Shown here piece by piece: positions 2,742 to 63,208 of a stretch of DNA of 64,000 nucleotides. Below the pieces are notes generated by a model that searched no databases, was not told the DNA's origin, and was given only the letters and a program-made list of their open reading frames with translations. The DNA is from Mobula hypostoma (taxonomy: Eukaryota). Position 1 is the stretch's first letter. The number at the start of each line of letters is the position of its first letter. Location of the stretch: positions 97,218,001-97,282,000 of the forward strand of contig NC_086097.1 in NCBI RefSeq assembly GCF_963921235.1, written 5' to 3'. The position numbers and the translations under genes were made by a program.

Positions 2742-5250
2742 GCAACACATATAAAAGTTGCTGGTGAACGCAGCAGGCCAGGCAGCATCTCTAGGAAGAG
2801 GTACAGTCGACTTTTCAGGCCGAGACCCTTCGTCAGGACTAACTGAAGGAAGACTGAGTAAGAGATTTGAAAGTGGGAGGGGGAGGGGTAGATCCGAAAT
2901 GATAGGAGAAGACAGGAGGGGGAGGGATGGAGCCAAGAGCTGGACAGGTGATAGGCAAAAGGGATATGAGAGGATCATGGGACAGGAGGCCTAGGGAGAA
3001 AGACAAGGGGGAGGGGGATAAAAGCCCAAAGGATGGGCAAGAAGTATAGTGAGAGGGACAGAGGGAGAAAAAGGAGAGAGAGAAAGAATGTGTGTATATA
3101 AATAATTAACGAATGGGATATGAGGGGGAGGTGGGGCATTAGCGGAAGTTTGAGAAGTCAATATTCATGCCATCAGGTTGGAGGCTACCCAGACGGAACA
3201 TAAGGTTTTGTTCCTCCAACTGAGAGTGGCTTCATCTTTACAGTAGAGGAAGCCGTGGGTAGACATATCAGAATGGGAATGGGATGTGGAATTAAAATGT
3301 GTGACCACTGGGAGATCCTGCTTTCTCTGGCGGACAGAGCGTAGGTGTTCAGCGAACGATCTACCAGTCTGCGTCGGGTCTCGCCAATATATAGAAGGCC
3401 ACATCGGGAGCACCGGATGCAGTATATCACCCCAGAGGACTCACAGGTGAAGTGTCGCCTCACCTGGAAGGACTGTCGGGGGCCCTGAATGGTGGTGAGG
3501 GAGAAAGTGTAAAGGCATGTGTAGCACTTGTTCCGCTTACGAGGATAAGTGCCAGGCGGAAGATCGGTGGGGAGGGATGGGGGGGGGGGCGAATGGACAA
3601 GGGAGTCGCGTAGGGAGCGATCCTTGCGGAAAGCAGAGAGGGGGGAGGGAAAGATGTGCTTAGTGGTGGGATCCCGTTGGAGGTGGCAGAAGTTACGGAG
3701 AATAATATGTTGGACCCGGAGGCTGGTGGGGTGGTAGGTGAGGACAAGGGGAAGCCTATTCCTAGTGGGGTGGCGGAAGAATGGAGTGAGAGCAGATGTG
3801 CGTGAAATGGGGGAGATGCGTTTGACAGCAGATATTAATGGTGAAGGAAGGGAAGCCCATTTCTTTAAAAAAAGAGGACACCTCCCTCGTCCTGGAATGA
3901 AAAGCCTCATCCTGAGAGCAGATTCGGCAGAGACCGAGGAATTGCGGGAAGGGGATGGCATTTTTGAAAGAGACAGGGTGAGAAGAGGAATAGTCCAGAT
4001 AGCTGTGAGAGTCAGTAGGCTTACAGTAGACATCAGTAGATAAGCTGTCTCCAGGGATAGAGACGGAAAGATCTGGAAAAGGGAGGGAGGTGTCGGAAAT
4101 GGACCAGGTAAATCTGAGGACAGGGCAAAAGTTGGAGGCAAAGGTAATGAAGTTAACGAGCTCAGCATGCGTGCAGGAAGCAGCGCCAATGCAGTCGTCG
4201 ATGTAGCGAAGGAAAAGTGGGGGACAGATACCAGAATAGGTTTGGAACATAGATTGTTCCACAAAGCCAACAAAAAGGCAGGCATAGCTGGGACCCATAT
4301 GGGTGCCCATGGCTACACCTTTAGCTTGGAGGAAGTGGGAGGAGCCAAAGGAGAAATTATTACGAGTAAGGACTAATTCCGCTAGACGGAGCGGAGTGAT
4401 CGTAGAGGGGAACTGGTTAGGTCCGGAATCCAAAAAAAAAGTGGAGAGCTTTGAGACCTTCCTGATGGGGGAGGGAAGTATATAGGGACTGGACATCCAT
4501 GGTGAAAATAAAGCAGTGGGGGCCAGGGAACTTAAAATCATCGAAAAGTTTAAGAGCGTGAGAAGTGTCACGAACATAGGTAGGAAGGGATTGAACAAGG
4601 GGGGATAAAACCGTGTCGAGGTATGCAGAAATGAGTTCAGTGGGGCAGGAGCAAGCTGAGACAATAGGTCTGCCAGGACAGGCAGGTTTGTGGATCTTGG
4701 GTAGGAGGTAGAAACGGGAAGTGCGAGGTGTGGGAACTATAATTTTGGGAGCAGTGGATGGGAGATCCCCTGAGCGGATAAAGTCGGTGATGGTGTGGGA
4801 GACAATGGCCTGCTACTCCTTAGTGGGGTCACGATCGAGGGGTAGATAAGAGGAGGTATCCGCTAGTTGTCGCTGTGCCTCGGCAAGGTAGAGGTCAGTA
4901 CGCTCAGACTACAACAGCACCCCCCTTATCGGCGGGTTTTATAGTAAGGTTAGGATTAGTGCGAAGGGAGTAGAGAGCAGAGCGTTCGGAAGGAGTGAGG
5001 TTGGAATGGGAACAAGGGTGCGGTGAAGTCGAGACGGTTGATGTCCCGTCGGCAGTTAGCGATAAAGAGATCCAGAGCAGGCAGAAGACCAGAGCGGGGG
5101 GTCCATGAAGAGGAGGAGGGATGAAGACGGGAGAAGGGGTCGTTGGTGGGGGTGGGAGAGTCCTTGCCGAGGAAATAAGCTCAGAGACGTAGCCGGCGGA
5201 AGAAGAGTTCCGCGTCGTGGCGAACGCGGAACTCGCTGAGGTGTGGGCGA
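2742..5250 (-). mobile_element. Penelope-like retroelement (Neptune-type), 5'-truncated and frameshifted RT + GIY-YIG
   Basis: IKPADKGGAVVV; GVAMGTHMGPSYACLFVG; FLRYIDD; VIYCIRCSRCGLLYIGET (GIY-YIG); Cys-rich linker; terminal repeat with hammerhead motif. Confidence 0.93.
2804..2845 (-). ncRNA. Minimal type I hammerhead ribozyme motif (helix III variant)
   Basis: Minus strand: agtc-CUGACGA-agggucucggccu-GAAA-a-GUC-gacu. Confidence 0.7.
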
Positions 5251-6224: not shown

Positions 6225-7470
6225 TGTCATGGTCCGGTCCGAGAAGTCCGTATTCCGGCTCACGGTTCGGTCCATAGTTCCTTATTCCAGGGTTTCTGGT
6301 TTTCCCCAATTTCTGTTGTAGGCACATGATTCTCGTTTTGGGGCTGAGACATAAATACCTCTGCAAACCAGGATTCCCTGTTGGACTGTTCTGTTCCCCT
6401 CCATGTCTCCCCGCCCCCTCGCCTGACTCTCTGCCTGGATACCTCGCCTGACTCGCTGCCTGGGTACCTCGCCTGACTCTCTGCCTGCTCACCTAGCCTG
6501 GATACCCCGCCTGTATACACTGCCTGTATAGCTGAAATTTTCCACCGAAGCAAAACCGGAGCCTTGTTACGTCAAGATAAGGAACTGTCTTTCGTCGTGT
6601 GGATTGTCTCTCTGTGTCCACGCCTTCGTTAGGTAGGTCCGTCCGTTTGCCGCTACCTCGTGTTAAGAACTGTCTCTGTGTCCACGCCTTCGCTAGGTGG
6701 GTCTGGCTGTTTGCCGCCACCTTGTGTTGGGATCCGTCTCTTCATGTTCAGCGTTCTGTGTATGAGTCCCGGCCCTACGTCCTGTTCCCAAGGAGAGGTC
6801 CCGCCTCTGTGTTCCGTGCTCCCGTCTCTTCTAGTCCAAGGCTGCCTGCTCCCATCTCTTCTAGTCCAAGGTTCTCTGCTCCTGAAGGCTCTCGTCCGGT
6901 CCGTGCCTAGTCCAGTCCTATCCGAGTCCTGTCCATCTGCCTTTACCTGTCCTTGTGTCTCGCCCTGCACAGCAGTTCCTCATCCAAGCCATGTCCAGTC
7001 CTGTAGCCTCGTCTTGTCCTCGCCTAGTTCTGGAGTCTGAGCCCGAGTCAAGTCCCAGGTTCTGGGTCCTTGCCCAGTTTCTGGCTCGGAGGCCATACCC
7101 AAGCCTCGAAGTACCTTCGACCCAAGCCTCAAGACCCCAAGCCTGTCTCCAAGCCTCAAGCCTCAAGACCTCAGCCTCCAGTCCTGCAGTCATGTCATGT
7201 CCTTGCCTGGTTCTGGGGCACGAGCCCAAGGCAAGACCCAGGTTCTGGGTCCTTGTCCGATCTCCGGCTCGGGATTCTAGCCCAGCTTCCTAGTTCGTAG
7301 TTCCTTGTCTCGGTTCCCTGTCTAGTCCATGTCCTAGCCCAAGTCTGCGTTCTTGTCCCTGCTCCTTGTCTGTATCCTGTCACGCCCCTAACTCTAGTCA
7401 GGTCCTGTTCCTTGTACTTTGGTGTCTGTGTCTTGCAGTTGAGTCCGTTCCCAACGTCCCCATTATGACA
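6225..7470 (+). mobile_element. Solo LTR, family 1 (Gypsy-like), 1246 bp
   Basis: TGTCAT...ATGACA termini; 5-bp TSD AAGAC (6220-6224, 7471-7475); inserted in a CR1 remnant. Confidence 0.87.
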
Positions 7471-7506: not shown

Positions 7507-9178
7507 TCCCACCAGGAAGGTCTCAAAGCTCTCCATCTCTTTTTGGATTCTAGACATAACCAGTTCCCCTCTACCACCACTCAGCTCCGTCTAGCGGAAT
7601 TAGTCTTTACTCTTAATAATTTCTCCTTTAGCTCCTCCCACTTCCTCCAAACTAAAGGTGTAGCCATGGGCACCCGTATGGGTCCCAGCTATGCATGTCT
7701 TTTTGTTGGCTTTGTAGAACAATCCGTATTCCAAACCAATACAGGTATCTGTCCCCCACTTTTCCTTCGCTACATCGACTGCATTGGCGCTGCTTCCTGC
7801 AGACGTGCTGAGCTTATTGACTTCATTAACTTCGCCTCCAACTTTCATCCTGCCCTCAGGTTTACCTGGTCCATTTCTGACAACTCCCTCCGCTTTCCAG
7901 ATCTTTCTGTCTCTATCTCTGGACAGCTTATCTACTGAAGTCTACTATAAGCCTACTGACTCTCACAGCTATCTGGACTATTCCTCTTCCCACCCTGTCT
8001 CTTGCAAAAATGCCATCCCCTTCTCGCAATTCCTCCGTCTCTGTCGCATCTGCTCTCAGGATGAGGTTTTTCATTCCAGGACAAGGGAGATGTCCTCCTT
8101 TTTTAAAGAAAGGGGCTTCCCTTCCTCCACCATCAACTCTGCTCTCAAACGCATCTCCCCCATTTCACGCAAATCTGCTCTCTCTCAATCCTCCCGCCAC
8201 CCCACTAGGAATAGAGTTCCCCTAGTCCGCACCTACCACCCCACTATCCTCCAGGTCCAGCATATATTTCTCCGTAACTTCCGCCACCTCCAACGGGATC
8301 CCACCACTAAGCACATCTTTCCCACCCCCACCACCCTCCCCACTTTCTGCTTTCCGCAGGGATCGCTCCCTACGCGACTCCCTCGTCCATTTGTTTTCCC
8401 CCCCTCCCCACATCCCTCCCCACCAATCTCCCTCCTGGCACTTATCCTTGTAAGCGGAACAAGTGCTACACATGCCCTTACACTTCCTCCCTCACCACCA
8501 TTCACGGCCCCAGACAGTCTTTCCTGCTGAGGCGACACTTCACCTGTGAGTCGGCTGGGGTGATATACTGCGTCCGGTGCCCCCGATGTGGCCTTCTATA
8601 TATTGGTGAGACCCGACGCAGACTGGGAGATCATTTCGCTGAACACCTACGCTCTGTCCGCCAGAGAAAGCAGGATCTCCCAGTAATACACATTTTAATT
8701 CCACGTCCCATTCCCTTTTCGATATGTCTATCCACAACCTCCTCTACTGTAAAGATGAAGCCACACTCAGGTTGGAGGAACAACACCTTATATTCCGTCT
8801 AGGTAGCCTCCAACCTGATGGCATGAACATTGACTTCTCTAACTTCCGTTAATGCCCTACCTCCCCCTCGTACCCCATCCGTCATTGCCCATTCTCTGGG
8901 CTTCCCCCCTCCCCCTTTCTTTCTCCCTAGGCCTCCCGCCCCATGATCCTCTCATATCCCTTTTGCCAATCACCTGTCCAGCTCTTGGCTCCATCCCTCC
9001 CCCTCCCGTCTTCTCCTATCATTTTGGATCTCCCCTCCCCCTCCCACTTTCAAATCTCTTACTAGCTCTTCTTTCAGTTAGTCCTGACGAAGGGTCTCGT
9101 CCCAAAACGTTAAATGTACCTCTTCCTATAGATGCTGCCTGGCCTGCTGCGTTCACCAGCCACTTTTATGTGTGCTCC
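7507..9178 (+). mobile_element. Penelope-like retroelement, 5'-truncated
   Basis: GVAMGTRMGPSYACLF; VYYKPTDSHSYLDY; IYCVRCPRCGLLYIGET; 9-bp TSD TTATCCATA (7498-7506, 9179-9187); same family as 2742-5250. Confidence 0.93.
9075..9116 (+). ncRNA. Degenerate hammerhead motif (GAAA to AAAA, helix I broken)
   Basis: agtc-CUGACGA-agggucucguccc-AAAA-c-GUU-aaau. Confidence 0.55.
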
Positions 9179-11794: not shown

Positions 11795-12246
11795 GCGGAG
11801 ATGTCACTCTCACGGACATGCGATACGTCCTGAAACAAATAGAACACAATGTTTCTGCTAACATCCCCCTCAGCTCCAGGCATCGTTCGAAAATCAGCGC
11901 CCTGGTCTGGGGAACCGATCAGAACAACTATCCATCTGACTTTGATGTTATTCTGGGATCGGACATCGTGTACAACCCTACCAACTTTCCACATCTTTTG
12001 CAGACACTTTTACATCTTTGCAACGAGAAAACTATAGTTTACATCTGTTCTAACATGGTTGCCAGAGAGGGAGCCACTAATTTTCACCAAGAACTATTGC
12101 CGGGGCAGTTTAATAGCGAGTTAATTCACACAAGCGGAAGCAACAATATTTACAAGTTGACTAAAAAAACAAGCACCCTCAGGAGGAAGGGATTAATTTC
12201 TGATACGGAGTGGAAAAGCAGCCTGGTACCAAAGTGTAAAACCTGA
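11795..12246 (+). CDS. EEF1AKMT3: Paralog A terminal coding exon
   Basis: Acceptor ttctttcatcAG; GGDVTLTD, LVWG, FDVILGSDIVY, LLQTLLHLC; ORF 11818..12246 ends in TGA. Confidence 0.93.
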
Positions 12247-18929: not shown

Positions 18930-19971
18930 TAACATAGCACGCTCACAGTTCACTAGCCGTAAGTCTCCTGAATGTGGTGTGACAAGAATACACATAGATT
19001 AAGATGTTAGCTGTCCTGGGTGATGAGCAGTTGGTCTGTCACCTGTCTTCAGGAGAGAGAGAGATAAGGAAAACAATGGAGCAGCATTTGGAGATGTTAA
19101 TGAAGGGACGGGAGAGAGAGCTGTCAAGAGCGGCTCCCCCTTTGAACCCTGAACTGTTTGAAGTGATGGACAGGCGATACCCCAGCAGGGGGATAAAAAG
19201 GGACAGGTTCGCTAAGGCGACACAAACGACACCCGAGGTAACGAGACCCTGGAAGCGGTGCGTCTCTCACAAGTCGGTGGGAAGTATCGGTCCATAAACG
19301 CACAGGGTGGAAAGGCACGATCGGCGGGAACCTGGTGTGTGTCCACCCTTGCCTGGGTGCCAGGTTCAGTGCAGAGAAACGGTCGTATCTGGAAACGGAG
19401 GGGTCAGGGTCGGTGACCTCAGATGACATCACAAAGGACTCGCCCGAAAGCTGACTGCGAAGGTCTGTGTGTGGAAGCTGTTTTGAATATTCATTCGTTT
19501 TGCTCTCTCTCTCCTTCCCCCCCCCCCCCCCCCCCACTGTCCATCGCCACGGCAGCGATTACTGCGAACTAAACTGAACTTTGCGTCACTTTGAAACTGG
19601 TCATTTACCCCTAGACAACGATAGAGCTTGATTGATCCTGTTATCTGAATTCTGTGTACATGTATGTTTATCATTGCTGAACTGTTGCATTCATTATCCT
19701 TTTGATTAGAGTACTGTGTTGCTTGTTTCTTTAATAAAACTTTCTTAGTTCTAGTAATCCAGACTTCAACTGAGTGATCCATTTCTGCTGGTTTGGCAAC
19801 CCAGTTACGGGGTACGTAACAGTGGAAAGAAAGCTCGGCACTCAGAGGAAACCCACGTTGTCGCAGACAGAACGTGCAAGCTCCATACAAGCAGCGGTGG
19901 GAATCGAACTCCCATCACACAGTCACTGCCGCAGTAGCGTTACCACAACCACTACGCTACCATGCCGCCCC
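18930..19971 (-). mobile_element. V-SINE (HE1-like), interrupted by a solo LTR
   Basis: Minus strand has a tRNA-like head (GGGCGGCATGGTAGCGTAGTGG, GTTCGATTCC) and a V-domain-like CGTGGGTTTCCTCTGAGTGC. Confidence 0.7.
18978..19821 (+). mobile_element. Solo LTR, family 2, 844 bp
   Basis: TGTGAC...GTAACA termini; 4-bp TSD GTGG (18974-77, 19822-25); internal AATAAA; homolog at 49017-49908. Confidence 0.88.
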
Positions 19972-34639: not shown

Positions 34640-34876
34640 AGTAACACATCAAAGTTGCTGGTGAACACAGCAGGCCAGGCAGCATCTCTAGGAAGAGGTA
34701 CAGTCGACATTTCGGGCCGAGACCCTTCGTCAGGACTAATTGAAGGAAGAGCTAGTGAGAGATTTCAAATGTACCTCTTCCTAGAGAGCTGCCTGGCCTG
34801 CTGCGTTCACCAGCAACTTTTATGTTTGTTGCTTGAAATTCCCGCATCTGCAGATTTCCTCGTGTTTGCGTTTTTA
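34640..34876. mobile_element. Short Penelope-derived insertion made of two inverted termini
   Basis: About 55-bp inverted arms around a hammerhead motif; flanking duplication AAAGAACGTGAA (34628-39, 34877-88). Confidence 0.8.
34701..34739 (-). ncRNA. Minimal type I hammerhead ribozyme motif, catalytic core intact
   Basis: Minus strand: uagtc-CUGACGA-a-gggu(cucg)gccc-GAAA-u-GUC-gacug. Confidence 0.75.
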
Positions 34877-35865
34877 AAAGAACGTGAAGTCGTTCAGAGA
34901 GAAACATCAAGCCCAACTCCCGCATAAAAAAGAACGGCATCCCAATCGTCAACCCACAACCCCCCACCCTGCACAAAACGCAACAAGGACATCCCCCAAA
35001 CCCCTCTCCCGTCGCGCAACAAAACGGAAAGGAACGGGCAGAATACAAGAACCATAAGACTGGAAAAGCTCGCTGTCCATAAATGCAATACTCTAATCCA
35101 TAACGCGGTACCGTCCTCCTCCTCGTCATTGAAGAGAGAGGCAGCACGCCAGCGCAGAGGACTGCCCGCATGTCAGTGAGCCACAGAGCGACAAGTCGCT
35201 CACTGGCCGCTCCCCGGCAGCGACTTTAGGGAAGGCAGTCGGCGCTGAACGCTCGCTTGCCTTCCGGGAGGCAGACGGGTGAGAACCTGTGGATATTGCT
35301 AGTATGGCCTTCCAGACTGCACTCGGTGGCTCCACGGGTGACAGTATGCAATAGTAGGTGGATCGAATGTGATGAGTATTTATATAGGAAGGTAACTGGT
35401 GTAAAAGATAAGAGTTATGGAAGACAGTGTTACTCGCGATGATTCCCAGGAATTTCTGACGGTGCTTCAACTTTTCACTAACCTTCAGATGAGTCACGTT
35501 ATCTGAACTTTCGGATCCGATTAACAATGTAATTGGATGTAAATTAAACGAGTTGATACCACTGTGGGAGAGTTATTTGAATGGGGGAGGGCGTGGGCAG
35601 CAATTGAAAATGAGAAACTGAGACAATACAGGAACTCTCCTCAGACGCTATGAAACAGAGTTAACATTTCAGGTGGTTTGACAACAAAACGAACGCAAAA
35701 ATGATGGTCAAGGATATTGTATTTAGAAGCTTAAACTGAACTAGGAGAGAAATTTAACAATTACTAAAGGCTAATGAAAGGTTTTCTTAAAGCCTTAAAA
35801 GGTTCATGGAATGTTGACTTACACATCAAAGTTGGAATACTAATGAGCAGAAGTTATGAGCCTTT

Positions 35866-36890
35866 TGGGGTACCGCAAAGCTCGGTGCTGGGACCCCAGT
35901 TGTTTACAATATATATTAATGACTTGGATGACGGAATTAAATGCAGCATCTCCAAGTTTGTGGATGACACGAAGTTGGGTGGCAGTGTTAGCAGTGAGGA
36001 GGATGCCAAGAGGATGCAGGGTGACTTGGATAGGTTGGGTGAGTGGGCAAATTCATGGCAGATGCAATTTAATGTGGATAAATGTGAAGTTATCCACTTT
36101 GGTGGCAAAAATAGGAAAACAGATTATTATCTGAATGGTGGCTGATTAGGAAAAGGGGAGGTGCAACGAGACCTGGGTGTCATTATACACCAGTCATTGA
36201 AAGTGGGCATGCAGGTACAGCAGGCAGTGAAAAAGGCGAATGGTATACTGGCATTTATAGCGAGAGGATTCGAGTACAGGAGCAGGGAGGTACTACTGCA
36301 GTTGTACAAGGCCTTGGTGAGACCACACCTGGAGTATTGTGTGCAGTTTTGGTCCCCTAATCTGAGGAAAGACATCCTTGCCATAGAGGGAGTACAAAGA
36401 AGGTTCACCAGATTGATTCCTGGGATGGCAGGACTTTCATATGAAGAAAGACTGGATGAATTGGGCTTGTACTCGTTGGAATTTAGAAGATTGAGGGGGG
36501 ATCTGATTGAAACATACAAGATCCTAAAGGGATTGGACAGGCTAGATGCAGGAAGATTGTTCCCGATGTTGGGGAAGTCCAGAACAAGGGGTCACAGTTT
36601 GAGGATCGAGGGGAAGCCTTTTAGGACCGAGATTAGGAAAAACTTCTTCACACAGAGAGTGGTGAATCTGTGGAATTCTCTGCCACAGGAAACTGTTGAG
36701 GCCAGTTCATTGGCTATATTTAAGAGGGAGTTAGATATGGCCCTTGTGGCTACGGGGGTCAGGGGGTATGGAGGGAAGGCTGGGGCGGGGTTCTGAGTTG
36801 GATGATCAGCCATGATCATAATAAATGGCGGTGCAGACTCGAAGGGCCGAATGGCCTACTCCTGCACCTATTTTCTATGTTTCTATACTA
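35866..36890 (+). mobile_element. Young CR1 3' fragment
   Basis: [29 protein letters not shown]; intact C-terminal ORF 36161..36796; (TTTCTATG)n tail. Confidence 0.95.
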
Positions 36891-38004: not shown

Positions 38005-38039
38005 CTGTGGGCGTGGCGAAAACTAACTTAGAGTTCAAC

Positions 38040-38520
38040 AACGCACACAAAATGCTGGAGAACGCATCAGGCCAGGCAGCATCAATGGAAAAAGAGTATA
38101 GTCGACGTTTCGGGCCGAGACTCTATCAGGACTTGGGGGGGGGGGGTGGAGTGAGAAGTGTCAATGTAAGAAAGCGGGGGGAAGGGGGGAGCTTAAACCA
38201 TGTAGCGGCTGGCGGGGATGAAGTAAAGAGCTGGGAAGTTGATTGGTGAAAGATACGGGGCTGGAGAAGGGGGAATCTGATAGCAAACACCCCATGGAAA
38301 AAAGGGGAGGAGCACCAGAGGGAGGTGATAAGGTGAGGGGGGACATCGCCGGAAGTTCGAGTAATCCATGTTCATGCCATCAGGTTAGAGGCTACGCAGA
38401 CAGAATAGGCGTTGCTCCTTCAACCTGACTGTTCGCATTGCGATAGTAGAGGAGGACATCGACTGACACGTCGGATTGGGAAGTAGGATTAAAATGGGTG
38501 GCCACTGGGAGATCCCGCTT
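38040..38520 (-). mobile_element. Penelope-like 3' fragment with broken hammerhead (38099-38134)
   Basis: GIY-YIG tail MNMDYSNFR; agtc-CUGAU(--)AGAGUCUCGGCCC-GAAACGUC-gacu. Confidence 0.75.
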
Positions 38521-38559
38521 TTAAACAAAGTTAGATGTTAATTGGAAGAATGAACGTAC

Positions 38560-46065: not shown

Positions 46066-47425
46066 TGGAAACTGCTGGAGTCAGTTATCAAAGATGTGAT
46101 AACAGCACATTTGGAAAGCGGTGAAATCATCGGACAAAGTCAGCATGGATTTGTGAAAGGAAAATCATGTCTGATGAATCTCATAGAATTTTTTGAGGAC
46201 GTAACTAGTAGAGTGAATAGGGGAGAACCAGTGGATGTGGTATATTTGGATTTTCAAAAGGCTTTTGACAAGGTCCCACACAGGAGATTAATGTGCAAAC
46301 TTAAAGCGCGCGGTATTGGGGGTAAGGTATTGATGTGGATAGAGAATTGGTTACGGGACCAATTGGAAATGGGACCTTTTCAGAATGGCAGGCAGTGACT
46401 AGTGGGGTACCACAAGGCTCAGTGCTGAGACCCCAGTTGTTTACAATATATATTAATGACTTGGATGAGGGAATTAAATGCAGCATCTCCAAGTTTGCGG
46501 ATGACACGAAGCTGGGCGGCAGTGTTAGCTGTGAGGAGGATGCTAAGAGGATGCAGGGTGACTTGGATAGGTTGGGTGAGTGGGCAAATTCATGGCAGAT
46601 GCAAATTAATGTGGATAAATGTGAAGTTATCCACTTTGGTGGCAAAAATAGGAAAACAGATTATTATCTGAATGGTGGCCGATTAGGAAAAGGGGAGGTG
46701 CAACGAGACCTGGGTGTCATTATACACCAGTCATTGAAAGTGGGCATGCAGGTACAGCAGGCGGTGAAAAAGGCGAATGGTATGCTGGCATTTATAGCGA
46801 GAGGATTCGAGTACAGGAGCAGGGAGGTACTACTGCAGTTGTACAAGGCCTTGGTGAGACCACACCTGGAGTATTGTGTGCAGTTTTGGTCCCCTAATCT
46901 GAGGAAAGACATCCTTGCCATAGAGGGAGTACAAAGTAGGTTCACCAGATTGATTCCTGGGATGGCAGGACTTTCATATGAAGAAAGACTGGATGAACTA
47001 GGCTTGTACTCATTGGAATTTAGAAGATTGAGGGGGGGATCTGATTGAAATGTATAAAATCCTAAAGGGATTGGACAGGCTAGATGCAGGGGGATTGTTC
47101 CCGATGTTGGGGAAGTCCAGAATGAGGGGTCACAGTTTGAGGATAAGGGGGAAGCCTTTTAGGACTGAGATGAGGAAAAACTTCTTCACACAGAGAGTGG
47201 TGAATCTGTGGAAGTCTCTGCCACAGGAAACAGTTGAGGCCAGTTCATTGGCTATATTTAAGAGGGAGTTAGATATGGCCCTTGTGGCTACGGGGATCAC
47301 GGGGTATGGAGGGAAGTCTGGTGCAGGGTTCTGTGTTGGATGATCAGCCATGATCATAATAAATGGCGGTGCAGGCTCGAAGGGCCGAATGGCCTACTCC
47401 TGCACCTATTTTCTATGTTTCTATT
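46066..47425 (+). mobile_element. Young CR1 3' fragment, near-identical to 35866-36890
   Basis: [41 protein letters not shown]; same tail. Confidence 0.95.
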
Positions 47426-48344
47426 CTTTCTTGTATAACCCCTCTGAAGATTTGGCCCACCAAATGTGGATATTTTAATCCCCTTTCCACCTAGATGAGC
47501 AGACTCATCATTTAGGAAAGATTCATCGATTCAAAGCAAAGTTAATGTGGTTTCATGAGGATCTAACAAGCAGAGTAGACATAGGGACTGGATTTGGACT
47601 TTCAAAAAGTGTCTGTCAAGGGAGCACATAAGAGATTGGCGGATATGAGTTCGTGGTATTGGATGAAGTGCATTAGTTTGGATTAAATAATGGACATCAC
47701 ATAGAAAACAGAAAGTTGGAATGAACAAAATATTTATTTTAGGTTTGCTTTGTTGCTAATTACATACAACATACATTAAAAACATTCCAGGGAATGACTT
47801 TGCCAAACAACTATACTTGTTCACTAGTCACAGTTGATTAAAACAACTCAAACATTCACCACATAGTGTGAAATGATCACTTAACTCAACCGTTTAATTT
47901 ACAATTTCCAAATCTCACAACTTGCATTCAGAAATTGTCCACTCTTGTTGAACCTGGCTGGAGTTCAATCTGGCAAGTTCTGAGTCCTTGACTATCAAAT
48001 GCATCTAGTTCTTGCCCTGTCTTCAGGTCACATTCAGATATTTACAGGGCTGTAAAGCTGTCCCAGCCATGTGCTCAGTTGAGGCTGACCAGGTGTTGAT
48101 GACAGGAACTTTATTCACTGTGCCCCTTTGTTTGGTGGTTTCCAGCATTTCTTCCCTGGCAGCAAGGTATTATCCCAAAGCATGGTGATATATTTGATAT
48201 CTCCCCGGCTGCTACTGGATGTTGTAACTTATGGAGTACCCCAGGAATCAGCTCTTAGTCTTCAGTTATTTACTATTTACATTCATGATTTGGAGGTAGA
48301 AGCAGAGTGTAATGTATCCAAGTGTGCTGATGACACAAAAATGC

Positions 48345-49010: not shown

Positions 49011-49016
49011 TGGGAG

Positions 49017-49908
49017 TGTGACGAGAATACACATAGATTAAGATGTTAGCTGTCCTGTGCTGGCACCAGTGGGATCAGCAGTTGGTCTGCCACCTGTCTT
49101 CAGGAGAAAGAGAGATAAGGAAAACAATGGAGCAGCATTTGGGGATGTGAATGAAGGAACGGAAGAGTTTAACGGAAGGAGAGCTGTCAAGATCGGCTCC
49201 CCCTTTGAACCCTGAACTGTTTGAAGTGATGGACAGGTGATATCCCAGCAGGGGGATAAAAAGGGACAGGTTCACTAAGGCAGGACACACACGACACCAT
49301 GAGGTAACGAGACCCTGGAAGCGGTGCGTCTCCCATAAGTCGGTGGGAAGTTTTGGAGGGCTGGTTGCGGGACCAAGCACAGGGTGGAAAGGCACGATCG
49401 GCGGGAACCTAGTGTGTGTCCGCCCTTGCATGGGTGCCAGGTTCACCGCAGAGAAACGATCGTATCTGGAAACGGAGGGGTCACGGTCGGTGACCTCAGA
49501 AGACATTACGAAGGGCTCGCCCGAAAGCTGAATGCGAAGAATATCGAAGGTCTGTGTGGAAGCCGTTTGAATATTCATTCGTCTTTGCTCTCTCTCTCCT
49601 TCCCCCCACTGTCCATCTCCCACGGCAGTGATTACGGTGAACTGAACTGAACTCAATTGAACCGAACTTTGCATCACTTTGAAACTGGTCATTTACCCCT
49701 AGACGACGATAGAGCTTGATTAATCCTGTTATCCTAATTCTGTGTACCTGTGTGTTTATCATTGCTGAACTGTTGCATTTATTATCCTTTTGATTAGAGT
49801 ACTGTGTTGCTTGTTTCTTTAATAAAACTTCCTTAGTTCTAGTAATCCAGACTCCAACTGAGTGACCATTTCTGCTGGTTTGGCAACCCAGTTACGGGGT
49901 ACGTAAGA
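49017..49908 (+). mobile_element. Solo LTR, family 2, 892 bp
   Basis: TGTGAC...GTAAGA (terminal CA mutated); 4-bp TSD GGAG (49013-16, 49909-12). Confidence 0.87.
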
Positions 49909-50209
49909 GGAGGCATTGGAAGACATGAACATACACTCAGTGGCCATTTAATTAGTGGTAACTGAGTATACAAGATAGTAAAGAGAGGGGAAAAAATTGC
50001 AAAAACAACAGTGCAGAAAAAAAGCTGAAGGTACAACCCATGGCATTGTGAGATGTGATCTGTGGTGTTCCATTACTGAGGTAGGGTTAGGAGTGTGCAG
50101 GTCAGTTCAGGAAGCTGATGGACGTAGGAAAGTTGCTGTTCCTGAACCTGGTGGTGTAGGAATTCTGTACCTCCTGCCTCATGGTAGCAGTAAGAGGAGG
50201 GCTTTAGTA

Positions 50210-53970: not shown

Positions 53971-56096
53971 ACATCTTTGAAATTATTTTTGTAGTAAATG
54001 TTATTGCACAGCTATGAGTAGAAAGTGTATAGAGTTGGACTCTGATGATATCAGAGCCCTAGTATTACAGTGAATCTAGCGCTGGGTGAGCACAGCATGC
54101 ACAGATCTTTGCAGCAAAGGACTGTATAATTATCAAAGTGTCCTGAAGGTATTTAATGATGACATATACTATACGCTGTACAAATAGTCTCTGTTTTGGT
54201 TTTGTGTGTAATATTTCATGGTGCTTCAGTCAGTACTAGTTCATAAAGTTCTATCCACATGTCAATTGTAAAACAACAGAAGCAGAAAAGTATTTGTAAG
54301 AAGGTGGACATGAGAAATATTATGCAGAGCTGGGAGGTGTTATGGAAGTTTAGGGTCATGTTAGTCTGAACTTCCAGTGTGAGTAGATTTACGAAACTTT
54401 CAGGCTTGGGTTTCCTTGCCTTTGGGTGAATTCAACAACTACCGTCATTTGGTATGTATAATGTATCAATCATCGCAATGAGGCTAATGTCACATATAAA
54501 AGGACTACTTGTCGAATCAGAATTGGAAAGACAATGGCACTTTCTGTCTGAGGATTGTTAGATTAAGAAGGGAGGTCTCTGCTCTGTCACAGCCTAGTGT
54601 TTCCTTTTTTTAAAATACAAAGAGCATCAAATATTGCAACCACTTTGCTGATGTCACCAACCCAGCTATCATCAAAATAGGAACACAAAAATGTAAGGAA
54701 TAAGAGCAGGAATAGCCCAAAAATCCCATGAAACCTGCTCTGTAGTTCAACAAGATCTTCACTGGTCCAATTGTTGTTCTCATTTCTATTTCCTTACTAA
54801 CTCCTTACAGTGCCTCAGAAGGCATATCTTATGAGGGAGCTTTGGGAAGGTGAGGCTTGTGACCACTAGGGTTTAGAGGAATGGGAGGGACCTGAGTCTG
54901 AAAGGTCTTGACAAGCTGGATGTGAAGAAGATGTTTCCTGTTCTGTTTCTGGAAGAATCCAGAACTAGGGGTCACATTTTAAAAAGAGAGTAACCAATTT
55001 AGAGAAGAGATGATGCATTTTTGTTTGCTCTCAGTCATAACTCTTTGGATCTCAAAAGGAAAATTGAAGTCGAGTCATTAAATACTTTTGTGGCCAAGGT
55101 TCTTAATGAGTGTAAGGGCTTAGGTATTCTGGAAAGTGGAGTGGGAAGGATCAGATCAGCAAATCCACAATAAGGCAGTGTTTGTGAGACCGAGTGGTTT
55201 GTTCTTGCTCGTCATTAAATTTGGATGAAACCATTGGTTCATTATTATCTCTTTGCCTTGATGATACAGTATCTCCGGGTTGGAGAATTCCAAAGAATCA
55301 CACAGCTCTCTCCAAGAAGAAATCCCTCATTTTTTTTTTAAGTGTCCATTCCACTGCCCTGAGACACTGCATGGTATTCCTTTGTTCTAGACTTTCCTAC
55401 CGGGGGGGAAAAGAAAAACCTCTTCACAGCATCTCCTCGCCAACCCTCACAGAATTTTCATGATTCAAAGAGATCTTCCCTTGTTCTTCCAAATTCCAGA
55501 GAACCTCACCTGAAAACTCACGAATTTAAAAAGGGGACACGTCAGCGTAGACAATCAAAAACTGGGGGAAGACCAAACAGTAAATTCCTGCGTTAAATTT
55601 TAACTCATTTAACAATTTTAAAAACCTTTAAGGGAAGGAGACTTTACAAATTTTACTGTGAATTTGGCACAAAAATGATTTAAAACAAGCATAAAATGCA
55701 GAGCTGTCTCAGAAAAAAATATTTAAAGCATTGTAGAGAGTTGTTGAAGAACTTTGGTACAATTTGCATTTGAAAACATGGTCACAGTTTAATCCCTGAA
55801 GGGTATTCACAGTCACAGGTTGGGGTGTAGAGAGATTTATACATAGTGGGACTGATAGGGAGATGAATTATAAGAATGAGATGTGCCACTCAGCTGGAGA
55901 AAACCTCTTAAACCACAAAACATGTTTACACTCAAATTGCAGCCACTCCTCCACAAGTACAGAAAGGAACTTTGTCATCATAAAATAGTCTGTGAACATC
56001 AAATGACGTCAGTTTGCAATGCACCAAACATTTCAAACAGTAACAGAGTATCTGTAGCAGAACGGACTGTGGAAAAGGAACAGAAATTATTGTTCA

Positions 56097-56925
56097 AAGT
56101 TGTTGGTGAACACAGCAGGCCAAGCAGCATCTCTAGGAAGAGGTACAGTCGACGTTTCAGGCCGAGATCCTTCGTCAGGACTAACTGAAGGAAGAGCTAG
56201 TAAGAGATTTGAAAGTGGGAGGGGGAGATCCAAAATGATAGGAGAAGACAGGAGGGGGAGGGATGGAGCCAAGAGCTGGACAGGTGATTGGCAAAAGTGA
56301 TATGAGAGGAACATGGGACAGGAGGCCCAGGGAGAAAGAAAAGGGTGGGGGGGGAATCCAGAGGATGGGCAAGGGGTATAGTGAGAGGGACAGAGGGAGA
56401 AAAAGGAGAGAGAAAGAAAGAATGTGTGTATATAAATAAATAACGGATGGGGTACGAGGGGGAGGTGGGGCATTAGCGGAAGTTTGAGAAGTCAATGTTC
56501 ATGTCATCAGGTTGGAGGCTACCCAGACGGAATATAAGGTGTTGTTCCTCCAACCGGAGTGTGGCTTCATCTTTACAGTAGAGGAGGCCATGGATAGACA
56601 TGTCAGAGTGGGAATGGGATGTGGAATTAAAATGTGTGGCCACTGGGAGATCCTGTTTTCTCTGGCGGACAGAGCGTAGGTGTTCAGCAAAGCAGTCTCC
56701 CAGTCTGCGTTGGGTCTCGCCAATATATAGAAGGCCACATCGGGAGCACTGGACGCAGTATATCACCCCAGCCGACTCACAGGTGAAGTGTCGCCTCACC
56801 TGGAAGGACTGTCTGGGGCCCTGAATGGTGGTAAGGGAGGAAGTGTAAGGGCATGTGTAGCACTTGTTCCGCTTACAAGGATATTGGCAAGACCCGACAC
56901 AGACTGGGAGACCGCTTTGCTGACC
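56097..56925 (-). mobile_element. Penelope-like 3' fragment (GIY-YIG + terminus) with short inverted 5' piece
   Basis: CKRNKCYTCPY...GVIYCVQCSRCGLLYIGET...MNIDFSNFR*; 56887-56925 is plus-strand Penelope sequence. Confidence 0.92.
56146..56187 (-). ncRNA. Minimal type I hammerhead ribozyme, best-preserved copy
   Basis: Minus strand: uagtc-CUGACGA-agg(aucucgg)ccu-GAAA-c-GUC-gacug; palindromic ACGU in helix III; predicted cut between 56151 and 56150. Confidence 0.8.
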
Positions 56926-56949
56926 GCTTTTTTGGGAAGAATCCGGAGA

Positions 56950-58490
56950 ATTGGCCTCCACTGCCTTCTGAGGCAGAGCATTCCACAGAACCACAACCCT
57001 CTGTGTGAAAAAGGTTTTCCTCAACTCTGTTCTAAATGGTCTACCCCTTATTCTTAAACTGTGGCCTCTGGTTCTGGACTCCCCCAACATCGGGAATATG
57101 TTTCCTGCCTCTAGCGTGTCCAATCCCTTAATAATCTTGTATGTTTCAATCAGATTCCCTCTCATCCTTCTAAATTCCAGTGTATACAAGCCCAGTCGCT
57201 CCAGTCTTTCAACATATGACAGTCCCGCCATCCCGGGAATTAACCTGGTGAAGCTACGCTGCACTCCCTCAGTAGCTAGAATGTCCTTCCTCAAATTTGG
57301 AGACTAAAACCATACGTAATATTCCAGGTGTGGTCTCACCAGAGCCCTGTACAACTGCAGATGGACCTCTTTGCTCCTATACTCAATTCCCCTTATTATG
57401 AAGGCCAGCATGCCATTAGCTTTCTTCACTGCCTGCTGTACATGCATGCTTACTTTCAGTGACTGATGAACAAGGACACCAAGATCTCATTGTACTTCCC
57501 CTTTTCCTAAATTGACACCATTCAGATAGTAATCTGCCTTCCTGTTCTTGCCACCAAAGTGGATAACCTCACATTTATCCACATTAAACTGCATCTGCCA
57601 TGCATCTGCCCACTCACCCAACCTGTCCAAGTCTCCCTGCATTCTCATAACATCCTCCTCACATTTCACACTGCCACCCAGCTTTGTCATCTGCAGATTT
57701 GCTAATGTTACTTTTAATCCCTTCATCTAAATCATTAACGTATATCGTAAATAGCTGTGGTCCCAGCACCGAGCCTTGCGGTACCCCACTAGTCACTGCC
57801 TGCCATTCTGAAAAGGACCCATTAATCCCTACTCTTTGTTTCCTGTCTGCCAGCCAATTTTCTATCCATGTCAGTACCCTGTCCCCAATACCATTTGCTC
57901 TCATTTTGCACATTAACCTCCTATGTGGGACCTTATCAAAGGTTTTCTGAAAGTCCAGGTACACTACATCCACTGGCTTTCCCATGTCCATTTTCATAGT
58001 TACATTCTCAAAAAATTCCAGAAGATCAGTCAAGCATGATTTCCCCTTCGTAAATCCATGCTGACTCGGACCTATCCTGCTACTGCTATCCAAATATGCT
58101 GCTATTTCATCCTTTATAATTGATTCCAGCATCTTCCCCACCACTGATGTCAGACGAACTGGTCTATAATTGCCTATTTTTTCTCTCTCCCTCCTTTCTT
58201 AAAAAGTGGGATAACATTAGCTACCCTCCAATCCGCAGGAACTGATCCTAGTCATACTTTACTTCATTGATCCCGGGGGAGATTGGTTTTCGTTACAGTT
58301 GCACCAACCAAGAATTAGAGTATAAATCTATATTTATAGAATCTATAGAACATTGGAAAATGACTACCAATGCGTCCACGATTTCTAGAGCCACCTCCTT
58401 AAGTACCCTTGGATGCAGACCATCATTCCCCGGGGATTTATCAACCTTCAGTCCCATCAGTTTACTCAACACCTTTTTGTGCCTGATGCA
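56950..58490 (-). mobile_element. CR1 ORF2 fragment
   Basis: [42 protein letters not shown]; short foreign insertion at about 58250-58335. Confidence 0.93.
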
Positions 58491-60854: not shown

Positions 60855-61180
60855 CCTTCATGGTCTTCTGTCCTCTCCTATCAGATTCTCCCTTTTCCAG
60901 CCTTTTGTCTCTTTCACCAATCAAATTCTCAGCTCTTTACTTTACCCCACCCCCTCTCCCGCTTTCACCTATCACCTCCACCTTGTACTTCTTCCTCCCC
61001 TCCCCCCCACCTTTATTAATCTGACTTCTTCCCTTTCTTTCCAGTCCTGATGAAGGGCCTTCACCCCAAAACGTCGACTGTACTCTTTTCCATAGATGCT
61101 GCCTGGCCAGCTGAGTTCCTCCAGCATTTTGTGTGTGTTGCTCAGATTTCCAGCATCTGCAGATTTTCTCGTGTTTGTGA
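60855..61180 (+). mobile_element. Penelope-like terminal repeat
   Basis: Pyrimidine-rich tract, hammerhead motif and gatgctgcctggccagctgagttcctccagca tail. Confidence 0.8.
61042..61080 (+). ncRNA. Hammerhead motif with G-to-A lesion in GAAA
   Basis: cagtc-CUGAUGA-agggccuucacccc-AAAA-c-GUC-gacug; perfect 5-bp helix I. Confidence 0.6.
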
Positions 61181-61254
61181 TTTACTGATTCACAGCGAAG
61201 TCCGTTCGAGAAGTGCCGACCTTGAAGAAGTTAAAATCTTCCCTTTGATGGGAG

Positions 61255-63208
61255 ATCAGTGAAACCATCTCTCACCACTCCCTCTGTGAGATCTCTGATG
61301 CCCTCCAACTCTATGACTGTGTGCTCACCCAGACCTGCTACCACAGCCATGTATCCCCCCTGGGAACTTGTCTTCACCACCATCTTGTGGCCACATGGTT
61401 TCCAAATCCATTTTCAGGCTCCTCGGTTTGGACCCACTGAGGACTCCAGATGCTCTCGTTCATTTGACTGCTTCTCCCTCCACTATGAGGAGATTCTGGT
61501 GGCCCTGTCTCAGTCACTGCCACAGCTCCAGGATTCTCTCTCCTCCACCTGCAATAGACTTCTCCGATACTTTATCTTCCACCAGATCCACACTTTCAAC
61601 CATTGGTTCTTTGCCTTCCTTACATCCAGCAAGGATGGGAAGGTCACCCATCTCCAGCAAGGATGGGAAGATCGCCCATCTCCAGCCTGCAGAACCCAGC
61701 ATCTCCAACTCCAGCCACCTTGGGTGCCTCCTGCTTGGACCTCAACACCACCTGATGCCCCCAGATCATGAATCTCTCTGAATCCATCCCCAGCCCCAAT
61801 CTCTGTACTGGTGACATTAACATTGCCAGCAGCGGTTCCAACAATTCCGAGTGGATGCAGATAATGGATTCCATCACCATCAATGCCAGATTCTACGATC
61901 CCGCACATCTTCAAACTGCTAATTACTCAACATTGAAGTCAAGCTCCAGCTTGGAAATTGACCGACAACACCTCCAGGCCAAAACTTTGTGTTGCCAGCA
62001 GACTCTCCATCTCCCTTTCCCCCACCATCGGTCTGTAATCCCGTGTCTCTCAGGCCTGACCATCAACTATTGGGTCCTCAGATCCTCCATCTTCCTCCCA
62101 CCCCACCTTCCCCAAACACCCCAACCCTCCTTTCTCCTCAGACACTACCAACCTTCTTCCCCCCTCCAATTCCAGCTCTCATCCGTGCTGGGTCTTCACC
62201 ATCCCCTCTGACCTTCCCCTCTCTGAGGCAGAACACTCTGTCCTCACTAAGGGTCTCACATTTGTCACCTCAGTGAGTTCTACACCTGCCAAGATGCCAA
62301 GTTCTTCTTCTGTCTCCATACCTGCTTCCTTGGCAAGGATTCTGCTGCCCACACTGCTGACACCTTGTCCCGACTTCAACCCTCCTCCTATTTTTGGACA
62401 CCCTGCTTTGATTTTCTTCCTGCTATGGAGCTTTTCATTGTTAACTGCTGATGAGACATCAATCATCTCAACTTTAATACTCCTCTCTCCAATTCAACCC
62501 TCACTCCCTTTGAACACTTTGCTCTCCACTCTCTTCACACTAATCCTAACCTCGCCATCAAACCCATAGATAACAGAGGTGCTGTGTAGTCTGCTAGGCT
62601 AACCTCTACCTTGCTGAGGCCAGGTGACAACTCTCAGACATCTCCTCTTACTTACCCCTTACACAGGACCTCACTAAGAAGCATCAGGCCATTAACTTCC
62701 GCTCCGTCACTGACCTCATCGACTCTGTGGGGGTGGTCTCCCATCCATTGGCAAGAACCTCATAGTTCCCTTACCCCACACCTCCTGGTTCTACCTCCTT
62801 CCCAAGCTCCACAAACTTGACTGTCCAGGTAGATCCATTGTTTCTGCCTGCTCCTGCCCCACAAAACTTGTGTCTGCATACCTCAACTCTGTTTTACCCC
62901 CTAATGACTTTAAGTTCCCTGGCCCCAGTTGTTGCATCTTCACTATGGATCTCCAGTCTCTGTACACTTCTATTCCCCATCAGGAGGGCCTTAAAGTTCT
63001 CCACTTCCTTCTGGACAACAGACCCAACCAGTTCCCCCACCTCCACCACCACTCTTCTCCATCCTGGCAGGACTGGTCCTTGCCCTCAACAGTAACTCCT
63101 TTGGTTCCTCACACTTCCTTCAATCCAAAAGTGTAGTTATGGGCACCTGTACGGGGCCCAGCTATGCCTACCTTTTCATCAGCTACATCCAACAGCCCAT
63201 CTTCCAAT
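61255..63208 (+). mobile_element. Older Penelope-like element, N-terminal and RT region, decayed
   Basis: IFTMDLQSLYTSIPHQEGLKVLHFLLDNRPNQFP; GTCTGPSYAYLF-like codons at about 63140. Confidence 0.8.

Follow-up and report, generated by a model that had tools for sequence, protein, structure and literature searches.

A minimal hammerhead motif left in a truncated, probably Neptune-type Penelope-like element of Mobula hypostoma

The stretch of Mobula hypostoma DNA analysed here (64,000 nucleotides, called the window below) holds at position 56146, on the minus strand, a sequence that resembles a hammerhead ribozyme. The question raised by this locus is whether the motif is a true member of a known ribozyme class, and whether this copy may still cut RNA. 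Minimal hammerheads (min-HHRs) in the pseudo-LTRs of metazoan Penelope-like elements were described in 2014 by Cervera and De la Pena (PMC4209133). Their monomers are inactive and their dimers cut poorly; the motifs of tandem elements pair through a palindrome, each cutting the other's site, and 5'-truncated elements with only the 3' motif are the common case (Table S1, same paper). We have found that the motif at 56146 is real, slightly damaged, solo and without a tandem partner. Its parts are the following.

56146-56183, minus strand: minimal type I hammerhead motif (pattern search, nhmmer homology, folding energies)
56183-56179, minus strand: helix I 5' strand, UAGUC
56178-56172, minus strand: CUGACGA box
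56171, minus strand: extra A before helix II
56170-56159, minus strand: helix II region, 12 nt
56158-56155, minus strand: GAAA box
56154-56152, minus strand: C-G-U; the ACGU palindrome is 56155-56152
56151, minus strand: C17; predicted cut at 56151/56150
56150-56146, minus strand: helix I 3' strand, GACUG

Helix I has 5 bp, four Watson-Crick pairs and a U-G (UAGUC/GACUG). The box CUGANGA, with the extra base (H) that follows it, is present as CUGACGA-A (56178-56171), and GAAA, a palindromic 15.2-16.2, U16.1 and H17 come, with no loop III, as GAAA-C-G-U-C (56158-56151). The copy fits the published consensus, CUGANGAH G...C GAAAN-palindrome-NUH (PMC4209133), except for U at 11.1. Most published sequences (consensus above 80%) have C opposite G10.1, several rows have U and so a G-U at 10.1-11.1 (PMC4209133), and here too G10.1 pairs with a pyrimidine, U11.1. 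The earlier note had found the motif correctly and had drawn it 4 nt too long, at 56146..56187.

A strict descriptor, with a Watson-Crick palindrome, matched once in the 64-kb window, at this copy, and never in 300 Markov-1 resamples; a simpler motif pattern matched once against 0.01 expected. The five homologous motifs claimed at 2804, 9075, 34701, 38099 and 61042 were all recovered by nhmmer (E 2e-14 to 4e-4). That the copy is the only one keeping both core and palindrome holds among the six window copies for a Watson-Crick palindrome, and fails if G-U is allowed there, when the 34701 copy passes as well. The Rfam scan of the window gave no hammerhead family at E<=1, the monomer folds with a z-score of -0.86 and its minimum-energy structure is not a hammerhead; both results would be expected because helix III is absent. 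A canonical type I hammerhead was rejected on the same grounds, no Rfam match and no helix III in the monomer.

We have delimited the element that carries the motif as follows.

56096-56145, minus strand: element 3' end, stopping 55 nt past the predicted cut (blastn boundary with other copies)
56184-56472, minus strand: pyrimidine-rich 3' UTR or pseudo-LTR body, from the ORF stop to the motif (89-92% identity with 2754-3547 and 8885-9166)
56473-56883, minus strand: C-terminal Penelope-like ORF fragment with CX4CX2C linker and GIY-YIG endonuclease, open to its stop (translation)
56881-56923, minus strand: 43-nt duplicate of internal 56684-56726 (91%) at the 5' truncation junction
56948-58198, minus strand: unrelated LINE fragment adjoining upstream, by chance in frame with the Penelope fragment (RVT_1 E 4.6e-24 at 57659-58198)

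Contig depth drops to the single-copy level below about 56090. The Penelope-like fragment (56096-56883) is 91.6% identical to a longer copy ending at 2754, and the LINE fragment recurs at 35866-36708 and 46067-47246. As claimed before, the motif lies after the GIY-YIG stop: it is in sense orientation, in the pseudo-LTR, 295 nt downstream of the stop of that frame. The endonuclease fragment (VIY...YIG motif) reached a Pfam E of 0.018, below the curated cut-off, and 0.96 to GIY-YIG clusters of the ESM Atlas; the comparison with solved structures gave no match. In the translation it is preceded by the linker C-X4-C-X2-C, and a CX2-5CxxC linker before the endonuclease is a feature of Neptune and Nematis elements (PMC8557442). 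The RT is missing from this truncated copy; a 92%-identical sister shows DKG and YIDD by eye (Pfam RVT_1 E 0.1). The element is a 5'-truncated Penelope-like element, probably of Neptune type, the type being read from the Cys linker and the endonuclease. Penelope-like elements typically show 5' truncation, inverted 5' fragments and an optional tail of 30-40 nt (PMC8557442), and this family has 5'-truncated copies, an inverted tail at 34770-34880 and two 3'-end classes.

The upstream pseudo-LTR is absent from the 56146 element; on its own strand 18 kb separate it from the next motif, and the 61042 copy lies on the opposite strand. The 37 nt before the element (upstream of 56923) and the 46 nt after it (downstream of 56096) were compared, and no target-site duplication longer than 4 nt was found, nor a host exon between 47.5 and 60.9 kb (Pfam scan of selected ORFs, 98 frames, and a crude splice scan). 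An ATG about 20 nt past the cut site, common to all copies, opens a frame in the tail (56128-56096, minus strand). By analogy with the anole element, whose ORF starts inside its hammerhead, it may be the start of the element ORF in a tandem unit.

Like the Penelope min-HHRs of 2014 (PMC4209133), the motif has CUGANGA, an extra base before helix II, GAAA, a palindromic 15.2-16.2, UH and a helix I of 4-5 bp without loop 1, and it lies downstream of the RT-endonuclease, mostly solo in 5'-truncated copies that number in the thousands. The closest published row is that of a Neptune element of Acropora digitifera, which has CUGACGAA-GGG and C-G-U-C in common with the 56146 family. The sequence of the family is not among the Fig. 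S3 rows compared, none of which comes from a cartilaginous fish (PMC4209133). It differs from the published motifs in its helix II, which is short at 4 bp, has a CUCG loop and a closing pair that is mostly G-U; the 56146 copy has a helix II mismatch besides. This is not a new ribozyme family, since a class with the same consensus was described in 2014 (PMC4209133); it is, judged by its sequence, one more family of that class. In the open literature, with Repbase and Dfam outside the scope, we found no description of this family among the accessible accounts of shark or elasmobranch Penelope hammerheads. Anatomy, position and published consensus all support the earlier assignment, a minimal type I hammerhead of the dimer type at the terminus of a Penelope-like element.

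Two other systems come close. In the Anolis Poseidon element PAc (PMC11167929) the element ends also lie past an uncut hammerhead, at two positions about 40 nt apart; here one class of ends lies at about +55 to +70 from the cut and the other at about +105 to +110. PAc belongs to the Poseidon clade, is intact and has been assayed, whereas the 56146 copy has a Neptune-type Cys linker and is a fragment. Non-LTR retrozymes (PMC7229834; bioRxiv 10.64898/2026.07.22.740005) have type I hammerheads related to Penelope pseudo-LTRs and are reported, in the second of these sources, in one chondrichthyan genome. They are non-coding tandem arrays of at least 2 units, and canonical hammerheads as well as circular RNAs are typical of them, whereas the 56146 copy stands alone, attached to an endonuclease fragment. 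A retrozyme was rejected for this copy because it is solo, with its nearest same-strand motif 18 kb off.

The earlier note had called the motif intact, and in this respect it went too far. We have aligned the contigs of four runs (two labelled DNA, two guessed to be RNA) to 55980-56400 at 84% likeness. At 56168 (position 10.3), where this copy has A, another letter made up 95.4% and 96.8% of the depth in the two DNA runs and 99.6% and 97.3% in the two guessed RNA. The A (G>A) is private to the 56146 copy, and it disrupts helix II. The family-majority helix II has 4 bp and -2.3 kcal/mol (-3.9 with C11.1); in the same register the 56146 copy has an A-C mismatch at 10.3 and +3.3 kcal/mol, and in a shifted register a 3-bp helix (A-U, G-C, G-C) of -0.2 kcal/mol. 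Helix II is thus weakened from -2.3 to -0.2 kcal/mol by the private change, and is the weakest of the three box-intact copies (-0.2 against -2.3 and -3.9 kcal/mol). The U at 11.1 was also considered as decay of this copy and rejected, as U is the family majority and the C form makes up 16-32% of the depth in the four runs.

In the local fold the core bases of the copy are paired with upstream sequence with a probability of about 0.9. An upstream anti-core hairpin kept as a conserved switch was rejected: of 16 family representatives only 2 beat shuffles, one of them an adjacent inverted copy, and of 28 other matches 3 did, while the window copies gave p values of 0.07-0.64. The copy has kept all its catalytic bases, and a homodimer modelled under constraints came to -9.1 kcal/mol. 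Given the catalytic bases, the 3-bp helix II and the modelled homodimer, some residual activity in trans may remain.

The family itself is very large. Contigs matching the 421-nt stretch numbered 86,251 and 90,131 in the two DNA runs, with depth peaking over the motif; in one DNA run the summed depth was about 14 million over the motif against 12.7 on the flank, depth being distinct from copy number. Dividing the depth ratio by the largest overlap factor (31) puts a rough floor of about 35,000 on the copies, at a density in the window of 6 per 64 kb. By this rough figure the family seems to be much larger than those of coelacanth and Xenopus, for which 4,000-9,000 copies are given (PMC4209133). 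The six window copies and the very high contig depth bear out the dispersed family claimed before. Among those listed, the largest rows of loose contig ends fell at 56180-56182 (140+165+551 contigs, run X1) and at 56145 (309), where helix I begins and ends, and therefore the motif is better conserved between divergent subfamilies than the sequence on either side of it.

About 90% of the depth keeps each of G8, G16.2 and G1.1; each is changed in about 9-13% of the DNA-run depth, always by a CpG-type change. With most family copies keeping each element, the sole status of the 56146 copy as bearer of core plus palindrome is an effect of a six-copy sample, and its special status does not extend to the genome. 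Within 56146-56178, CpG dinucleotides hold G8, the palindrome and the cut-site junction, as well as G12 in the C11.1 form. Taken together, the catalytic bases, their CpG context and a decay of about 9-13% at each of the three listed indicate that methylation decay erodes the catalytic bases first. G8>A made up 1.2% and 3.4% in the two runs guessed RNA against 10.2% and 8.6% in the DNA runs. This scarcity of CpG-decayed variants was set aside as a signal, because loop positions drop too and contigs lose rare variants. On the unique flank (55980-56084) neither guessed-RNA run gave a contig, and contigs carry no strand, end or level information. A 2,857-nt contig of a second, related organism spans the flank and breaks off 27 nt into the element, as does the contig of the first organism; this suggests an insertion common to both, with the 27 nt falling below the 31-letter bridging bar.

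The other Penelope-like copies of the window, and the gene exons between which some of them lie, are the following.

2746-5174, minus strand: longest sister, with frameshifted RT (DKG, YIDD) and endonuclease; 5' end approximate
7508-9174, plus strand: sister between two METTL21-like paralogue exons; hammerhead at 9079-9116, G12 and helix I pairs lost
34644-34880, minus strand: 126-nt copy; hammerhead at 34701-34738, core complete, 4-bp helix II, AUGU replacing ACGU
34770-34880: inverted tail fragment preceding the 34701 copy
38039-38521, minus strand: copy of an older subfamily; its motif (38099-38134) has a broken CUGANGA box and keeps ACGU-C and the 3' strand of helix I
60878-61189, plus strand: older-subfamily copy, G12 lost, long tail
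42468-42311, about 38672-38543 and 34000-33600, minus strand: METTL21-like paralogue exons
5723-about 5850 and 11797-12180, plus strand: METTL21-like paralogue exons

The hammerhead of the longest sister (2804-2841) has A at 15.2, and helix II of the 34701 copy is better than that of the 56146 copy. An older Penelope-like RT fragment at 61235-63176 (plus strand) is 74-76% identical to 2746-5174 and has no hammerhead end in the window. The METTL21-like genes are two convergent lysine methyltransferase (PF10294) paralogues, with 66-77% identity over the two exons that were compared; neither first exon was located. Other repeats of the window are LINE segments at 35866-36889 and 46403-47427 (1,025 nt, 95.9% identical, same orientation) and at 18977-19822 and 49016-49909 (85% identical), and an inverted pair of GC-rich repeats with short internal repeats, at 534-1750 and 6225-7364, which flanks the two long Penelope-like copies.

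All six window copies run through the cut site, and therefore their RNA templates were uncut there. Five copies end about 55-70 nt past it, and the 61042 copy and the inverted tail at about 105-110 nt. The inverted tail starts 3-4 nt past the predicted cut, and two single-copy contig joints, from 56185 and from 56195 to 56151 (run X5), return to the cut itself or to a point no more than about 3 nt from it. These are possible footprints of cut RNA templates, three anecdotes that are given no weight here and of which one may be an alignment edge from CpG decay. Among the rows listed, no pile-up of loose ends was found at 56150/56151 as a footprint of cutting in vivo.

We have looked for relatives in metagenome loci with a scan that fixed only CUGAYGAAGGG...CCYGAAAC and left helix I and the cut triplet free. 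There were at least 118 matches in at least 114 loci. GTH follows in 60 of the 118 matches listed against about 5.5 expected by chance; a longer-insert type makes up 27 of the 118 listed, and the remainder resemble chance or decayed matches. Dropping one match with a short flank, 59 matches gave 25 distinct pairs of helix I strands, 26 with the 56146 copy. In this set 82 of 104 cells are paired against 48.3 +/- 4.6 when shuffled (0 of 10,000 shuffles reach 82), and slid controls paired 30-53 of 100 cells. The innermost pair is A-U in 20, U-A in 3 and C-G in the 56146 copy. At the level of sequence helix I covaries across related animal families, these being families of other animals with relatedness uncontrolled. 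Within the own family, for which helix I and II covariation had been proposed as a check, the common variants among those listed are single-sided and CpG-type. An endonuclease homologue (35-56% identity, tblastn down to E 2e-32) lies on the motif strand in 11 loci among the matches listed, and in the 8 with a listed motif position the motif is downstream of it. Some loci (L009, L025 and relatives) hold hammerhead families with a palindrome 2 nt longer (ACAUGU type), others (L019, L060, L076) pairs of motifs that are inverted back to back with about 25 nt between them, and L053 a close relative of the published Acropora Neptune motif.

The reading that we prefer, with a probability of about 0.85, is a minimal hammerhead of a Neptune-type Penelope pseudo-LTR left in a 5'-truncated insertion. 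Core, palindrome, helix I, the position after the endonuclease, the very high copy number and the motif island between subfamilies are established in the sequence. Following the published work, a tandem source element would hold two motifs about 3 kb apart that pair through ACGU, each core cutting the other's GUC. Such mutual cutting would be weak, probably with the element protein as chaperone, and would trim a long precursor RNA. Reverse transcription would start 55-110 nt past an uncut 3' motif, and every insertion would therefore carry a passenger motif. In the anole element uncut RNA is the main template and RT starts at two internal downstream sites (PMC11167929); since 6 of 6 window copies read through the cut, as with the anole template, the passenger reading would fit those data by analogy. 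Granted this origin, it is very probable that the 56146 copy is an inert relic, as it has no partner in cis and a private mismatch in helix II.

We consider it unlikely that the dispersed copies are themselves active, their transcripts meeting through the palindrome, cutting each other's GUC and affecting host introns or transcript turnover, in which case the 56146 copy could serve as substrate or partner. That about 90% of the depth keeps each of G8, G16.2 and G1.1 speaks for such activity, as does a pair of sense copies 3.4 kb apart in one METTL21-like intron, where 34701-34738 has the core and 38099-38134 the intact cut-site strand. On paper the two are complementary (helix I 5/5 Watson-Crick, helix III three Watson-Crick and one G-U, -8.4 kcal/mol). 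However, at such a copy density two sense copies per intron would be expected by chance, only 4+5 bp join the partners, and the local fold sequesters the 34701 core with a probability of about 0.9. Moreover, published dimers cut poorly even when adjacent (PMC4209133), the anole motif cuts only with the element protein, and no RNA-seq ends were found at its site in the data of that paper (PMC11167929).

A further reading, which we hold to be equally unlikely, is that the motif is kept for a role other than cutting (protein binding, RNA dimerisation or positioning of the RT start) or is a parasite of the element, the catalytic bases being vestigial. The anole hammerhead is dispensable for insertion in vitro, where catalytic mutants insert normally (PMC11167929), Naiad elements thrive without canonical hammerheads, with parasitism raised by the authors (PMC8557442), and the RNAs behind 6 of 6 window copies were uncut at the site. 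Against it, distant animal families have the catalytic boxes and the cut triplet in common, as seen in the 60 of 118 matches listed and in the published alignment (PMC4209133), and the anole motif responds to C3/G8 swaps in the way that a true hammerhead does (PMC11167929). This reading concerns the role of the family, and the class assignment of the 56146 motif is unchanged by it. A chance likeness inside an ordinary repeat, to which the Rfam result, the z-score and the monomer fold might seem to point, can largely be dismissed, since a motif without helix III would not be expected to match those models or fold alone, and the 300 empty resamples, the agreement of consensus and position and the helix I covariation across families all argue against it.

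Returning to the preferred reading of a Penelope pseudo-LTR relic, the copy at 56146 itself adds little. It is very unlikely, in our view, that a genome with at least tens of thousands of motif copies runs a distributed system of ribozymes, one broken copy making up for the defects of another. If it did, the 34701 core could cut the 38099 GUC in the same METTL21-like pre-mRNA, at the natural tandem spacing, and the decay of the CpG dinucleotides that hold G8, G12, the palindrome and the cut site would be a passive off-switch of the host. The family adds a lineage missing from the 2014 alignment rows compared (PMC4209133), and its copy number is apparently much higher; a genome with so many copies offers good material for tests of the in vivo role of Penelope hammerheads.
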